DNA from: Kondoa subrosea | Taxonomy: Eukaryota | Length of the DNA: 64,000 nt | Assembly: GCA_039545335.1 (NCBI GenBank) | Contig: BCIN01000008.1 | Span: forward strand, 383,528-447,527 | Reading direction: 5' to 3' | Part shown: positions 8,341 through 60,548 of the stretch, in pieces | Position numbering within the stretch: position 1 is the first letter of the stretch | How the letters are laid out: every line of letters begins with the position of its first letter | Notes under the pieces: generated by a model | The model's input: the letters and a program-made list of their open reading frames with translations, nothing else | Told to the model about the DNA's origin: nothing | Databases searched by the model: none | Program-made: the position numbers and the translations under genes

Positions 8341-9846
8341 CATACATGGCTGAAAGTAGTACAGAAAGAGAAATCTAGTAGATACGAAAATGACCTCGAC
8401 TGCGAATCTCTTGTCAACTGTTGAGCTGTCTATGGATGGTCTGGATGCCAGTTATTGTAATTATGCCGTCGAGCGGGTTTCGGCATCAACTAGAACGAGT
8501 CAGCATTATCTCCTGAGTGACTGAATGACATACCCTGCAAGAACGAGCAAATTGCTGAGCGACAGCCCTGCCTTGCTCACTATCGTCTTTGTACAAGAAA
8601 GAAAACTCTGAGCCTGGCGGAACCTGGCTGGCATGATCCCAGCTCAGCCGATGTCTCTCGAAGATGGACTTGAGGTGGTCCAGTGCAGCGTCGGTGCGAC
8701 GTGCGTCGATTGTGCGGACCGTCATTTCGGACCTTGTTCTAGACCATTCTGTGTCTTCCTGGTGTAGAACATCCCTTGCTGCCTCCCGATTTAGGTTGTC
8801 TGGTGCAAGTGGTCCCTTATTCTTGGAGTGCGACTTTCGTTGGCTCAACCAGTAACCAACGACCTGAATATATGATCAGACCGAAAAATTCAATTTTAAT
8901 CTTTCTACTGACCCGGATATCATCTTTATCTTTCTCGACCGCAGAATCATCGTGGACCCGACCGTTATCCTGAGATAAGTACTATGAGCAGACTGATTGT
9001 AGCTATGCAGCTCGAAGAGACGTACATTATGAGCTTCATGGAGAGCTTTGGCTCTGCTTCCCAGTCTGTTGTCCACGTATCTTGACGGCAAAAAGCGATT
9101 CAACCGATTTTTACGATTGATACTCCTCCTGCAGCGAATTCTGTCAAGATTGACTGAATGCGATATGATTGACGTACATTTCATCGGCAGTGAGTACCAT
9201 GTTGTTGTCAAGATAATCAGCCGGTAAAGAAGAGCTGAAGAGGACCAAGAGGAAGAAGAGAGGTTGGAATATGTAAATGACTGGACTAGAAGAATGCTTC
9301 TGAATACAAAGGGTCATCATCCAAGTCATGTATGACAGGGAAGTGATAACACCTCAGGAGCAGGAAGAAAGAACAGGATGCACAAGAGAGATAAAATCAA
9401 ACCGAGGAGCAAAGAATCCCTTCTTCACAAATTTGATGCGTCTAGAGCTTTTGCAAGGCTGACTTTATCGAACAAAACATAACGACAGCACTGGAATTTA
9501 CAGACTGATGTAGACAGCCTTACCAGGCCCGCACAAACTGCTCGTATCACGCGAAATGGCAGAAGAAGAACGTCTTGGGCAGTGCTCGGTCTTGATCAGG
9601 AGGTTCGCTTGCACGAATAGCTCGCATTGAGCTCTTGCTCTTACATCTCAACGAGCCACATCTCAGCAACAGGTCAACCCGCCAATAAATCTCGCTTGTC
9701 TCGAACTTCCATTCTATAAGAATAATTGACAGTGTGAGCTTCTAGCTGACCAGTGACGCTGTCGAGATCTCATTGTCGGGCTCCAATTCACTCTCTCCTC
9801 CTTACTTTCCACTTTCGGTCTCGTTCCTTGCATTTTTGGTTTCAGT

Positions 9847-11060
9847 ATGGCTGCAAAATGTTACGTAGGCAATCTCAGGTATGTAGTACAGATTGGTAGG
9901 GCGCGTTGTGGCCCATCTCTGCGCTGTTTAGCTGGAACACCACCAAGGATGATCTCGGACAAGTAAATGCTCAATTTCACGCTCAGACTTGTTTAGCAAT
10001 GCTTATTCTTTTGCTCGTCTACTGGCGTTCTCGCAATTCGGAACCGTGATTGATTGCAGTATGGTTGATTTTGTGCATTGCGGTTCGAGATTTGATTCGT
10101 TTTGTTCAAAGTTGTCATGCAAGAGGTATCGATTTTGCTGTGGGATTCGATCTGGTTTGATACTTGCTTGTGTGTTTTGTAGCAAGAAACCGGTCGTTCT
10201 CGTGGATTTGGTTTCGTCACTGTTCGGCTTTGTTTTACGTGTTTTGGTGTTTGCTCTGATTTCAAGTCTCCGGATTCCCAGTTCAGTGATCAAAGCGAAG
10301 CCGATCGAGCTATTCAAGGCATGAACGATCAGCAGCTTGTTAGTTCTCGCGTGCTGTGTTTTTTGAATATTTTTTATGACGCGCTTGTTTGACCTTTAGG
10401 GTAAATTTCCTCTTGCTTCTCGCATGGCTTGTTTAACAACTAGCTCCTCAGATGGACGTAGACTTCGCGTCAACGTCGCCAACCAGCGTGGAGGCGGTGG
10501 AGGAGGATCTTGTTCGTCTCTCTACCTCTTTGAGCATTTTTGATCTCATCCTCTCTTGCATTCTTTAGTCGGAGGAGGATGTACGTTGCTCTTCACACTC
10601 GCGCGCTATCTCTCTAATGTATAGATTACCCAGATGGCCAGAGCTGTACGCCTGAAAACGAGCTAATTCTTGTTAGCTAACATTTGTGATCAGATGGTTC
10701 TGGGTACGGTCAGCAACAAGCCTATGGAGGTGCTGGACAAGGCTTTGAGCAATACGGAGGCAACGCTGGAGGTAAGTCTATTACTTGGCTCTATTCCGTC
10801 AGACATCTGATTTAGGTGTTCTCTGGTAGGCCAATACGGCCAGCCTCAATACGGTGCTCCTCAAGGATACCCCGGCTACAACCAGCAAGCTCAAGGATAT
10901 CCTCAGCAAGGATACCAGCAGAACTATGGTCAACAGCCGGCAGCGAGCTACAATCCTCAACAAGGTGGTTACTCCGGCCAGAACTAGTAAGATTCTTATC
11001 ATTTGTCACCGTCAATCGACCTCTGACATCCTACTCAGTGGTGGTGCTGCTCCCTACTGA
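9847..11060 (+). CDS. Glycine-rich RNA-binding protein (one RRM plus a G/Y/Q low-complexity tail), 12 coding introns
   Basis: Spliced product MAAKCYVGNLSWNTTKDDLGQAFSQFGTVIDCIVMQEQETGRSRGFGFVTFSDQSEADRAIQGMNDQQLDGRRLRVNVANQRGGGGG... has RNP2 (YVGNL) and RNP1 (RGFGFVTF). It requires a 1-nt exon and a TG acceptor. Confidence 0.9.
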
Positions 11061-11370
11061 TCTCGGCATGTCTGTCGCGCCTGATCTTGTATACTCGCTT
11101 TCTTCTTCGTTCTCAAGGTTGATTTCGGAACTGTTCTTGGGTGTACAATAAGGGCCAGAAGAATCTTGTACGCATGCTTATGGATTTGATCTTAGCCTTG
11201 TCACATCAGAATCACATTCTTACGCGCTTCGTCATCGCAATGTTTTTCAGCTTGCACCGCAACCACTGAAACGCATTGCTTTCGTCCAGAGATTACTTGA
11301 ACACCTGTGCACTGCCTATATTCAATCATCAGCTCTAGTATTACCCTGGTCTGATTGTGCGCGAGCCACG

Positions 11371-14300
11371 ATGGAATCAGATCTGAAGGAAGAAGAGAAT
11401 CTAGGTGGCCTCTATGTCGCTCTGTATGCTTTGAGAGCTTCCATTCCTGCTCTCTCTATCGTTGTCTTTGCCTCCTACTACGCCTTGACTAAGCTGTTCA
11501 AGTCTTTCAAGAAACTTCAACGAAGTGCATACACTGCTATTGGTACTGAAGCACAAAGCACTCTTCCATCTAACCCTTATGCATCAAGACCACCTCAAGC
11601 ACCTAAAGCCAAATCACCGATCATCCCTGTTGTTGTACAATTCAAGGAGAAGAGAAGCAATCTGATACTAGCGCTCTTTGGTCTAATTGCTGTATCGTAT
11701 CTTATTGCGGATGGAGCAGTCATTGTTACAAGAGCGATCCTTTCCAATGCATGGGAACCGGAACTCAAGCTGTATCGATTACAAACCTTCTACCTATCAA
11801 CAGGCTTCGTCTTTGGGTTAACAGCCATTATGTTGGCTCATGATAGGGAAGAAGGGAAACAGAAAGGTGCATGGAAATCTTCTTTCCCAGCAACGATGGT
11901 CGTCCTGGTCTTTGCAGCCGAGACAGCTTTATTAGGCGTGCTTGGTACAGCTGTTCGAGCAAGACATAGAAGTCCTCATCATCATAAAGTGTCTCCATAC
12001 GATATCGCACATTTTTCTATCCTTGGCGTACGGATCCTACTTCTTCTTCAATTAGCTTTATCCTTTTCTCCCTTATTTCAGCAAAGTCGATTTCTCAAGG
12101 CCAAAGATGCAGCAGCATATGGTACTTTCGAGAACGGTACTACTACGCCCGAAGAACAAGCCGCCAAGAAGCCAGCTAGTGGAGATCCGACTGTCCCTAC
12201 ACCTGCTCCGCCAGTATCGTTTGCAACATTGGTATCTAGAGTCAAAGTTCTAGCGCCCTATCTTTGGCCTGCTAAATCTCGTATACTACAAGCTGTGGCC
12301 GGTCAGTCTTCCTAATTATCGTGATAAGTATGCGTCTGATATGTTCAAATCAGTGCTCTGTTTCATTATTTTGGGATTGGGTCGAGTTATCAATGTTGGC
12401 GTACCCCTTTTCCTTGGATACACAGTTGGAGCATTGGCGGATGGAAGATCACCATGGACGTACTTGTTTGGCTATATAGCTTTGAGATTCATGCAAGGCA
12501 GTGGTGGTATATTGACTGTTCTTCGTCCGTCATCTTTACAACGGATAACCCGAGGATCAAGCTAAGATTTAATGTTAGAACAAAATCTGTGGATCCCCAT
12601 CGCGCAGTATTCTGATAGAGAGTCAGTAACATCTTCATTTCGTCGTCTGCTTGTTGCTGAGAACGATATTGATTGGCAGAATCACTCTCATGACTTTCAA
12701 TCATCTGCTCAATCTCTCAATGCAATATCATGTATGAAGAAAATCGCGCTGTGCTTCCTGTTAGCTAAGATGATTTTCAATATCATAGAACCGCAGAAAG
12801 ACGGGTGAAGTCTTGCGGGCTTTGGATCGAGGCAGTGAGTCTTGTTGCAAGGCTGTAGACCATAATTGACTCTTAGTATAAGGTGCAATCAATACCGTAC
12901 GTCTCTGATCATACATAAGGGAAGGCGCCTGACTCGAATTCTGCGCAGTTCTTCCAAATGTATGGTAGCATAAATATACCTGCAATTCAACGCAAAGCTG
13001 ATTTCTCCTTCTAGGCTGCTCTTCCAGATCTTCCCAATCTTTGCAGATATTTCAGCAGCGGTCATCATTTTCTTCTTCCAGTTTGGTTTCTTGCTATCGA
13101 TCGTCGTCTTTGCTGTATTATTCTTCTATGTGGTCGCGAGCGTGGTCTTGACTAAACGAAGAGTTGCCCTTAGAAGAGCTATGAATGATTCGGATAAGTT
13201 CTGCAGAGGTATACATACGTAAGACTTATACTGACTGCCAGCGCGGGAAGATTCTGACAATGTGATTAGTGATGCTTTGATCTCGGTCGGTGAGTAATGC
13301 CAATTTCCTTCGACCCTTGCCATCGAAGCTGAAGCTACATGTAGAAACTGTCAAGTGTCAGTTCGATATTGCCCCGCTCGCTCGAAGAGTGACTAATTCT
13401 GTTTGTAGATTTCACCGCGGAAGATTGGGAAAGTCAGCGCTATCGCGAAGCTATGCAAGATTAGTATGTTGGACCTTGGCTATCAGTCTGTTCCTATCTG
13501 ACTAGCCTTCGCAGCCAAAAGAAGGAACTGCGTGTCATGATGTCGCTCAGCGTGCTCAATCTCACGCAGAACTTGATCATCTCAGGTAAGCTTTCTTGTA
13601 TTAGTTGAATTAGGACTGGACGCATGCGATCTAAAGTCGGAATGCTTGTCGGAACTCTGATTATCAGCTGGCAAGTCGTCAATGGCAAATCTAGCGTTTC
13701 GCAATTTGTCACCTTCGTTGCATATCTGCAGCAGGTCAGTACAATCTCTACTTGAAACTTGTGAAAGCCAAAGCTCATGATTTCGTCGCAGCTATACGTA
13801 TGTCGGCTTGTCTCGAGTATCTGACACTGCTAATTCGGATCTTAAATACGTAGGGGCCGTTAGTGCAACGATCTACTATACCGCTGGGCAATCAGCTAAT
13901 CGCTTTCCCTTGCGAATAGGCTGAATTCATTGGGCACACTTTATCGAGTTAGTAAGTAATATAGCGCACAAGTTCTGCACCAGCTGATTCACTGATGCCC
14001 GCCCAGTCAACCAGAACTTGATTGATGTTAGTCTACAATATAGCATTCCAGCATTTTGCTGATCCTAAAGTGATTCTGGCATGGCAGACCGAACAACTCA
14101 TGAATCTCCTTAATGAAGATGCAGAAGTCAAAGACCGCGAAAATGCGTCGGAACTGTTGACATCGAAAGGAGAAGTCGAGTTCCGCAATGTTTCCTTCTC
14201 TTACAACGGCGGCAAGTCTTTCGCTTTGAAGGATGTAAGCTTCAAGATTCCAGCTGGCGCATCAGCTGCGTTTGTTGGACCTTCAGGATCAGGTAGACTC

Positions 14301-58216: not shown

Positions 58217-60548
58217 ATGGAAGAGGACGAAGTGATGTCTGCTTCTTCAAGTGATCTAGGATACGACGACGATGATCAGTCTATGCATGATGGTGAGCTT
58301 CCCATTCACATTCATTCAGCTTATATATCTGTGCTCGCTCGTTCGCTCGGGTCGGTATTAAGTTGATTACTCCATTGTTTCAAATGGCCCCTGTTCCGCC
58401 GATTGAGCGATACTAGTCGCCTGCAATGAGCTCTCTCTTCTACCTCGCTTGTCTGGGAGATTTACCAGAGTGATTGCCTACAACCAGATTGCTTACTGCG
58501 GTCTTTATTGAACACAGATTTCAACAATGGAGATGAAGAGGATGACATTTCTTCAGTCGACGACAGTGGTTTCGAAGCTGCCAGCGCAGAGAAAGCGAAA
58601 GCTCATGTTATTGATTACAAAGTTCTGAGCGTCAAAGAATTGGAAGCTCGTCAGAAATTGGATGCGGATTCTGTGGCTTCTATTCTAGCTATTGAGGTAC
58701 GTCAACAAGTTAGAGAGGATTGCTCTTTAGTATGTAAATCTGATTAATTGACAGCCAACTGAATGTGTTATCCTTTTACGACATTGGGGTTGGAATAAAG
58801 ATAAACTGATAGAAGCCTATATGGAAGATCCAGAGAAGTGCAACACCGACGCAGGATTAGAGAAAGGCAAACAACCTAGATTGAAACGAATGAGAGGTTT
58901 CACTTGCGAAGTTTGTTTCGACGAAGATGGATCTAAAGAAACTTTGGCTCTGAGTTGCGATCATCGGTACTGCAAGGATTGTTACACTCAATACCTCAAT
59001 CAGAAAGTAGCGTGGGTCAATGCGCTATTGAATCAATTAAATTTGCTATAATAGCTTTTGCTTGCACAGAGATGGCGAAAGCAAACGTATTCAATGCATG
59101 GGATCTAAATGTCCGCTGATAGTGGATGAAAAGACTGTGGATCTACTGGTGGATACCGAAACAAGCGAGAAGTACGTTTGGCAGGAGCGTTTCATCAGCC
59201 TTTGCTGATGAGTCTTGTGCATGACGCACAGGTACAAACGCCTACTCAATCGGGCCTACGTAGACGATAACCCAGCATTACGATGGTGTCCAGGACCAGA
59301 TTGCGATCTAGCTATCGAATGTCACGTACCTACCAAATCTTTGGATGCTATCGTACCTTCGGTCAAATGCGATTGCGGTCATGCTTTTTGTTTCGGTTGT
59401 GGTTTGACGGATCATCAACCTTGTATTTGTCCTTTGGTCAAGAAATGGTTGCAGAAATGTAAAGATGATTCGGAAACGGCAAATTGGATTTCTGCAAACA
59501 CTAAAGAATGTCCAAAGTGCAATTCGACAATTGAGAAGAATGGTGGTTGTAACGTGAGTCGGCCATACTTCTACTCTGTCGAGAGTCGACTCAGAGATGT
59601 GTGCTTCTAATCACAGCACATGACATGTAAGAAGTGCAAGTATGAAGTAAGTCCCTTGTGCATTCAGTACCCAGCCTTAGCTTAATATTGGTATGACTAC
59701 AGTTCTGTTGGGTCTGTATGGGGTTATGGACGGATCATGGAACAGCTTGGTATTCTTGCAACCGCTATGACGAGAAAGAACCGCCAGGCAAAGATGCGCA
59801 ATCCAAGAGTCGGGCTTCTCTGGAACGATATCTACATGTGAGCGCTATGGCTGAGATATCAGAGTAATCTGATATCGGTGCCGTTGTCACTCACAGTATT
59901 ACAATCGTTACGCAAACCATGAACTTTCAGCCAAACTTGAAAAGGATTTATACGTCCGCATTGAGAAGAAGATGAATGAGATTCAAGAAGTTGCCAACAT
60001 GTCTTGGATCGAAGTGCAGTTTATGAAGAAGGCTGTTGATACTTTGAGCGATGTATGTCTTTGTGTTTCCAATCCCACTGATGAGGCTGACGTTGACATA
60101 TACATCATACAGTGTCGAGTGACTCTGAAGTGGTCTTATGGATTAGCTTTCTTCATGGAACGAAACAATCAGTCGGAATTGTTTGAGCAGAATCAGAGCA
60201 ATCTGGAAATGGCTGTAGAGGCTTTGTCAGAGTTGGTGAGTGGATAGTCTCATAAGCACGATTGGTGTTAGATGGATCTGAACGTCTCACAGATCGAGAA
60301 GCCTATAGAACCAGAAACGATTCCAGAACTACGAGAGCAAGTGACGAACAAATCTGTCAGTACCAGCTACCAGCTAATACCTGTATGATGCTAACGTCTT
60401 GCGCCAGGTTTATGTACACTCTCGTCATCAAGTTATGCTCGAAGATACAGCGAAAGGGACATTGGATCACCGGTAAGTACATTTGATTTTCAGCGATCTG
60501 TCTTTTAATAAATTACATAGATGGGCTTTTACTACTGGAGGTGCATGA
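58217..60548 (+). CDS. ARI1: Ariadne-family RBR E3 ubiquitin ligase (Hel1/Dbl4/ARIH1-like)
   Basis: Acidic N-terminus, RING1 [47 protein letters not shown]2 [19 protein letters not shown], Ariadne domain LERYLHYYNRY. Confidence 0.95.

Follow-up and report, generated by a model that had tools for sequence, protein, structure and literature searches.

Locus and gene model

Positions 9847-11060 on the forward strand of a 64,000 nucleotide stretch of Kondoa subrosea DNA (GenBank assembly GCA_039545335.1, contig BCIN01000008.1, positions 383,528 to 447,527; the whole stretch is hereafter called the window and coordinates are counted from its first letter) hold a gene for a small protein with an RNA recognition motif (RRM). 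The gene is readable as 13 exons and 12 introns, according to a model built from coordinates and translated, and its product of 182 aa consists of an N-terminal RRM followed by a Gly/Gln/Tyr-rich tail. Here we describe position 10400, where a G is probably a real internal exon of one nucleotide; the gene around it is dense in introns and codes for a small RRM protein rich in glycine. The reading is the best-supported one given protein collinearity, splice signals, intron lengths and read-back of the DNA, and from the sequence we infer that the mRNA carries the G.

Upstream of this position lies exon 6 (10282-10338, 57 nt), with the peptide F-S-D-Q-S-E-A-D-R-A-I-Q-G-M-N-D-Q-Q-L, which corresponds to helix 2 of the RRM and the start of its last loop. 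It ends in phase 0 after CTT (Leu), reading ...CAGCAGCTT at 10338. Intron 6 (10339-10399, 61 nt) opens with donor GTTAGT and closes with acceptor TTTAG; its sequence offers two alternative branch-like motifs, TTGAC at 10389-10393, whose A is 7 nt away from the 3' end, and TATGAC at 10375-10380, whose A is 20 nt away. The proposed exon at 10400 would supply the first base of an Asp codon, G+AT. It is followed by intron 7 (10401-10451, 51 nt) with the weak donor GTAAAT (A at +5), acceptor CTCAG (3' end CCTCAG) and a branch-like TTAAC at 10433-10437, its A 15 nt from the 3' end. At 10395-10406 the DNA accordingly reads TTTAG-G-GTAAAT, a single nucleotide with an acceptor AG directly before and a donor GT directly after it. 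Exon 8 (10452-10511, 60 nt) starts with ATGGACGT and reads AT + G-R-R-L-R-V-N-V-A-N-Q-R-G-G-G-G-G-G-S + T, which comprises strand 4 of the RRM and the beginning of the Gly-rich tail.

An earlier note, made from the letters alone, had drawn attention to 10339-10451. Reading the sequence back showed all of its letters and coordinates for this segment to be correct, and translation bore out its statement that removing the 113 nt as one intron causes a frameshift. Joining CTT+G+AT yields L-D-G-R-R-L-R-V. Intron 7 is a multiple of three and contains no in-frame stop, such that its retention would add 17 residues.

Collinearity with RRM relatives

Prokaryote genomes were scanned with the piece encoded by exons 5 and 6, which gave five small bacterial RRM proteins. 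These were aligned with peptides of six exons, each read directly off the window (alignment A1). The exon peptides tile along the five bacterial proteins without overlap. The peptide of exon 6 takes up columns 51-69 and the first whole codon of exon 8 falls in column 71; the single column between them holds Asp in four of the five bacterial proteins. The exon 6 peptide was also aligned to residues 55-73 of PDB chain 4c7q_A, and the exon 5 piece matches Pfam RRM_1 (PF00076) with 21.8 bits at a cut-off of 20.7.

When A1 was used as query, 7,997 of the 8,000 scored candidates were significant; the family counts given here rest on the 120 listed, mostly bacterial, proteins. From these, 124 RRM domains were cut, of which 122 carried both marker motifs. 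We defined spacing as the number of residues between the end of G-F-G-F-V and the Gly of G-R-x-L-x-V. It is 21 in 119 domains, 20 in two and 19 in one, and the residue preceding that Gly is D in 116, N in three, E in two and L in one, counts that describe the subfamily and not all RRMs. With the one-nucleotide exon the model has a spacing of 21 and a D. A single intron starting at a GTTCTC donor would give 22 and N, and retention of intron 7 would give 38.

The spliced model, which contains the RNP2 and RNP1 motifs, fits an 80-position family profile, made from these relatives' domains, from end to end. Its score is 111.6 bits without gaps, compared with 103.9 bits and one insertion for the GTTCTC donor and 93.2 bits with a split domain for intron 7 retention, hence it exceeds the two main rivals by 7.7 and 18 bits.

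The RNA recognition motif protein P0004 of Ceratobasidium sp. AG-Ba aligns with the one-nucleotide model without gaps over residues 1-89, from Met 1 through the Gly run that follows the RRM, with the shared stretch ...MNDQ[QE]LDGRR[LI][RK]VN.ANQRGGGGGG. Exon 8 agrees with its ...DGRRIKVNGANQRGGGGGGGSF. P0004 matches RRM_1 at positions 1-70 of 70. As an aside, this protein (300 aa) consists of two units of an RRM plus Gly tail in series, the second of which begins mid-motif at G-N-L-S-W-N, and it looks like two tandem paralogous genes that were fused by annotation.

Splice signals and intron length

A training set of 26 introns was collected from the window, comprising 17 hand-picked junctions between long open frames and nine unambiguous introns of the RRM gene. 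All 26 measure 47-63 nt. The introns of 61 and 51 nt lie inside this range, in line with the claim in the earlier note that both flanking introns have genome-typical length, and the 12 introns of the RRM gene model measure 48-62 nt. A single intron of 109-113 nt would have about twice the usual length of this genome. A strict-motif survey of the window found 47 intron candidates of 40-69 nt, compared with eight when the sequence was reversed as a control; beyond 80 nt no clear excess was seen.

We then listed every GT/GC-AG solution across the gap with introns of at least 38 nt and both exons in frame and free of stops. There are 15 such solutions. It had been claimed that only CTT+G+AT yields the conserved RRM sequence, which is too strong as far as open frames are concerned but holds in that the one-nucleotide path is the only solution collinear with the family. 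Its summed site score of 19.6 bits is likewise the highest, although four sites are added up here and only two for a single intron.

Matrices trained on the window gave 6.1 bits for the donor and 6.5 bits for the acceptor of intron 6, which puts the former at the 93rd percentile among the window's GT sites and the latter at the 97th among its AG sites. For intron 7 the donor GTAAAT scored 2.2 bits and the acceptor CTCAG 4.9 bits. Training donors range from 3.4 to 10.6 bits and training acceptors from 2.9 to 10.8 bits. The T fraction of intron 7 is 0.37, which is intron-like when compared with 0.35 in training introns and 0.20 in coding sequence. GTAAAT serves also as donor of intron 2 of the same gene. 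Taken together, each flanking intron is complete with a donor, a branch-like motif, YAG and the usual length, though the second donor falls below the training minimum, and the base between them is needed for both the frame and a conserved residue, as frame, alignment column, spacing and Asp all indicate.

The chance of such an arrangement was simulated with 40,000 intron-like random 113-mers with the real ends, requiring an internal AG-N-GT with signals at least as good and halves of 45-70 nt. It appeared in 131 of the 40,000, and in 25 when the acceptor had to reach the observed score; when exons of 1, 4, 7 or 10 nt were allowed it appeared in 620. Screening the window for the four-signal pattern gave one occurrence on the forward strand, which is G10400, and one on the reverse strand. 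The latter (approximately 59431-59568) is surrounded by stops in all frames and was discarded as a chance match in non-coding DNA. It is the position of the pattern, exactly where the frame needs a base, that carries weight; the pattern alone means little.

Two further properties of the intron pair were considered. Intron duplication as the origin of introns 6 and 7 found no support: the closest resemblances, with p 0.03 for introns 2 and 7 and p 0.07 for introns 6 and 7, are not significant over 66 pairs. Folding of 10325-10465 gave no structure that would present the splice sites, as the segment folds worse than its shuffles (z +1.95, 195 of 200 shuffles at least as good).

Reliability of the DNA

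The earlier note had named a missing G, hence an assembly error, as a possible refutation. Two DNA runs of one sample were separately assembled, at word depths of 143 and 54, into contigs that total approximately 18.8-18.9 million letters for each run. Both assemblies contain one contig identical to the window over 9800-11100, with zero substitutions and zero indels. Since separately assembled read sets give identical DNA, an assembly error is unlikely, and so is the loss or gain of a G within the GGG run at 10399-10401. The sample is probably the source of the assembly and does not represent an independent strain; assembly error as the source of G10400 is rejected as far as contigs from that sample allow.

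A second irregular intron

Intron 2 (9963-10024, 62 nt, forward strand) has the donor GTAAAT, the same hexamer as intron 7, and the 3' end CTACTG. The DNA contains no AG between 9997 and 10057, and no GT/GC-AG solution exists for this intron. Only a GT-TG intron, or the equivalent TA-GG, yields D-L-G-Q-A-F-S-Q-F-G, which is collinear with every relative; an AT-AC alternative, 56 nt long, would lengthen the product by two residues. GT-TG introns are uncommon yet on record: Table 1 of the curated Ganoderma lingzhi annotation gives 22 among about 92,100 introns. The sequence fits either a rare non-canonical acceptor that is tolerated by the organism or an acceptor mutation in this strain.

Alternative explanations

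Several observations weigh against a one-nucleotide exon. Its donor GTAAAT scores lower than the lowest training donor and lacks the G at +5 found in 25 of the 26 training donors, a penalty that is partly circular because the training set was hand-picked with a preference for G at +5. Intron 7 is in frame and stop-free, and its coding/intron log-odds of +2.2 bits is ambiguous as it falls inside the ranges of both introns (-25.2 to 4.5, median -9.0) and coding windows (-4.6 to 18.7, median approximately 6). The bare four-signal pattern is not rare either, with five and zero occurrences in two reversed-sequence controls. The same gene seems to need the non-canonical GT-TG intron, by which either odd sites are tolerated or the copy is damaged. 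The 120 relatives are closely related, mostly bacterial, and were retrieved with a profile that included the exon peptides of this gene (without the Asp), and therefore do not form an independent sample. Run records for 9700-12400 showed no RNA run that contains the stretch, the protein collection held no near-identical, transcript-derived protein, and searches by neighbouring gene or by RRM pattern found no orthologous genomic locus in which conservation of AG-G-GT could be seen. Finally, a single intron of 112 nt with GT-CA or TT-AG ends would give the identical mRNA, CTT-G-AT, such that junction reads alone cannot discriminate between the two.

That 112-nt intron, running from 10339 to 10450 (GT-CA) or from 10340 to 10451 (TT-AG), would take the G from an intron end rather than from 10400. 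The apparent use of a non-canonical 3' end, TG, by intron 2 of the same gene lends it some credit, yet it would be about twice as long as all 26 collected introns, the shifted TT donor and CA acceptor reach scores of -5.6 and -7.0 bits, respectively, and the internal acceptor-G-donor arrangement would have to be the kind of coincidence met 131 times in 40,000. Moreover, the 20 non-canonical types that exceed 0.01% in Table 1 of the curated Ganoderma lingzhi annotation include neither GT-CA nor TT-AG, and we consider this explanation highly improbable. The remaining single intron that has to be weighed is canonical: GT-AG, 109 nt, from the GTTCTC donor at 10343 to the acceptor at 10451. It is in frame, free of stops and still reaches its profile score of 103.9 bits. 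It would produce ...Q-Q-L-V-N-G-R-R-L-R-V with one extra residue, a spacing of 22 that occurs in none of the 122 domains, and it requires an insertion and falls 7.7 bits short of the one-nucleotide model. Its donor scores -3.3 bits (12th percentile of window GT), has no G at +5 and would be used while the strong GTTAGT four nt upstream is left unused, in an intron of about twice the normal length; among the alternatives it is the least probable. We regard it as very unlikely that only intron 6 is excised and that 10400-10451 is coding, always or in a sizeable isoform, with the insert G-K-F-P-L-A-S-R-M-A-C-L-T-T-S-S-S before the last RRM strand. This would use just the two strongest sites, 6.1 and 6.5 bits, and skip a donor of 2.2 bits; the 51 nt are divisible by three, stop-free in frame and, at log-odds of +2.2, not clearly intron-like. 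Against it stand the spacing of 38, where none of the 122 related domains exceeds 21, and the profile score of 93.2 versus 111.6 bits with a domain broken in two. The 51 nt also have a donor, TTAAC 15 nt from the CTCAG acceptor, a typical length and a T fraction of 0.37 versus 0.20 in coding sequence, and by a rough estimate about 15% of such introns are in frame and stop-free by chance. Retention may provide a minor isoform, but the spacing in the family contradicts it as the predominant form.

It is also conceivable, but unlikely, that this copy of the gene is defective or decaying in the strain, in which case the frame break between 10338 and 10452 and the missing AG of intron 2 would be lesions and no correct mRNA would be made. 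Two irregularities do lie within 500 nt of one gene, and no identical transcript-derived or annotated protein and no RNA run was found. Such an absence from databases is however expected for an unannotated genome. The other ten introns are all GT...YAG, all 13 exons share one open frame, and from Met to tail their product can be aligned collinearly with relatives. A random loss of one nucleotide would not bring about a gap of 113 nt that splits into two typical introns around one base.

In terms of transcripts, the one-nucleotide model predicts a cDNA with CTTGATGGA, against CTTGTTAATGGA for its rival with the GTTCTC donor. Under the rivals a junction of CTTGTTAATGGA or CTTATGGA, or retention of the 51 nt, would be expected.

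Exons 5 and 6 read through the in-frame intron gave one candidate in the protein search, which was not significant, and the tail exon of 51 aa gave 439 candidates, none of them significant. A 52-aa piece searched against representatives had two weak matches, to unrelated multi-RRM proteins, and the 21-aa piece of exon 8 had no match in PDB. A degenerate pattern of GFGFVT plus donor hit 118 stretches, and the RRM matches among them are all intronless bacterial genes.

Order of splicing and consequences

If G10400 is an exon, the gap would consist of two ordinary short spliceosomal introns, 61 and 51 nt long and one base apart, each with a donor, a branch-like motif, a pyrimidine-rich 3' part and YAG. 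Removal of both would give CTT-G-ATGGACGT, which would place the Asp of the L-D-G-R loop ahead of the last RRM strand and keep the Gly/Tyr/Gln tail in frame. Very short fungal introns are expected to be recognised as units across their own length, and introns 6 and 7 would likewise be recognised by intron definition.

The geometry suggests that they are removed one after the other. At the second donor U1 would contact nine nucleotides, 10398-10406, which take in the acceptor AG of intron 6, and the two branch-like motifs of that intron are 7 and 20 nt upstream of this AG. There is hardly room for two spliceosomes at once, and therefore stepwise removal is a reasonable assumption. Either order would leave a usable site: TTG|GTAAAT once intron 6 is gone, or TTTAG|GATGGA once intron 7 is gone.

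The earlier note had further proposed that skipping the G acts as an autoregulatory off-switch. Skipping would indeed shift the frame, but it would not introduce a premature stop. The shifted frame stays open as far as a stop at 11149-11151. Because this stop lies in the last exon, downstream of the normal one (11058-11060), the usual trigger of nonsense-mediated decay (NMD) is missing. The predicted product would be an RRM without its last strand plus an out-of-frame tail of approximately 140 residues. Where a protein regulates itself through alternative splicing and NMD, as for plant GRP7, a premature stop is present in the unproductive isoform, in contrast to the G-skipped mRNA predicted here. 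Retention of intron 6 does give an early stop. As read from the sequence, autoregulation through G skipping is unsupported.

A looser form of regulation would be that the abutting acceptor and donor compete, such that the share of pre-mRNA that keeps the G acts as a tunable checkpoint on the output of this RNA-binding protein, perhaps influenced by the protein itself; combined with the GT-TG intron in the same gene this could point to unusually relaxed 3' splice-site recognition in a yeast-sized basidiomycete genome. We mention this as a highly speculative and improbable idea.

Comparison with known systems

The arrangement resembles two other known splicing systems. Recursive splice sites, or zero-length exons, have an acceptor that abuts a donor (YAG/GTAAGT-like) in very long animal introns, which are removed stepwise with nothing retained. 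The acceptor adjoining a donor and the implied stepwise removal are shared, whereas in the RRM gene one G is retained, without which the frame breaks, and the introns are approximately 50-60 nt long. In fungal stwintrons an inner spliceosomal intron interrupts a splice signal of an outer one, such that the outer site comes into being only through the first reaction. Here again two spliceosomal introns of a fungal gene are in immediate contact and would be removed consecutively, but both have their own uninterrupted GT...YAG signals.

One-nucleotide exons proper have been documented in a plant and in other fungi, and G10400 is probably another instance of this oddity. The long-read annotation of Coprinopsis cinerea (Cell Genomics 2025, PMC12230235) reports 13 one-nucleotide exons spread over 13 genes, along with 57 exons of 2 nt and 27 of 3 nt, by which the assertion that exons of one nucleotide are extremely rare is overstated and dated. 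C. cinerea belongs to the same phylum and has genes with short introns, rich in microexons, as well as one-nucleotide internal exons whose omission breaks the frame; its exons differ from G10400 in being backed by full-length transcripts. The Fusarium P450 CYP621A has a one-nucleotide exon (Int J Mol Sci 2026, PMC12940212) for which conservation in 20 orthologues and 18 confirming SRA reads are reported. This exon shares with the present case a gap of approximately twice the median intron, AG-N-GT inside that gap, a conserved protein motif that depends on the base and, as length marker, an intronless relative. It differs in being part of an ascomycete P450 gene, where the base is the middle of a Gly codon. 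Exon A333 of Arabidopsis APC11 (Sci Rep 2015, PMC4674806) was proven by base substitution and cDNA sequencing and is likewise a constitutive single nucleotide between AG and GT that is needed for the frame, yet this is a plant gene and its flanking introns are long, 422 nt in all. We found no literature report of a one-nucleotide exon in an RRM gene, which does not cover the supplementary gene list of C. cinerea, and that list may hold one.

G10400 is likely a further basidiomycete case among the few documented one-nucleotide exons. It opens no new question, as both the phenomenon and the experiment that proves it have already been published. It has practical implications: standard gene finders and read aligners would break the RRM gene or call a non-canonical intron, and an automatic proteome of this genome probably lacks the correct version of the protein. 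The gene model also contains exons of 12, 12 and 14 nt, and with these G10400 would illustrate how far intron-defined splicing can shrink an exon.

Other features of the locus

The remaining exons of the model, all on the forward strand, are exons 1-5 at 9847-9878 (32 nt), 9932-9962 (31 nt), 10025-10058 (34 nt), 10112-10125 (14 nt) and 10183-10221 (39 nt), and exons 9-13 at 10569-10580 (12 nt), 10634-10645 (12 nt), 10694-10771 (78 nt), 10830-10986 (157 nt) and 11039-11060 (22 nt). The intron density is extreme, with 12 introns per coding sequence of 549 nt and a mean exon length of approximately 42 nt. Besides G10400 the model has three very short exons. The one of 14 nt (10112-10125) is supported by collinearity with relatives, and the two of 12 nt in the tail (10569-10580 and 10634-10645) are placed by frame only; the tail exons as a whole are based on frame and composition.

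An open reading frame of 130 aa on the opposite strand (10003-10395) has no Pfam match, and no Rfam families were found in 9000-12000. The gene directly downstream (11371-12312) starts approximately 310 nt past the stop of the RRM gene. For its first long exon (314 aa) neither a Pfam match nor, in a metagenome scan, a relative was found. The metagenome scan with the neighbouring gene gave 128 pattern matches, none of them related; the nearest protein clusters of a neighbouring gene are mostly from Basidiomycota. Within the RRM gene, the introns at 10222-10281 and 10512-10568 have the donors GTTCGG and GTTCGT, in which GTTCG represents an uncommon pair at +3/+4 with the G at +5 kept.

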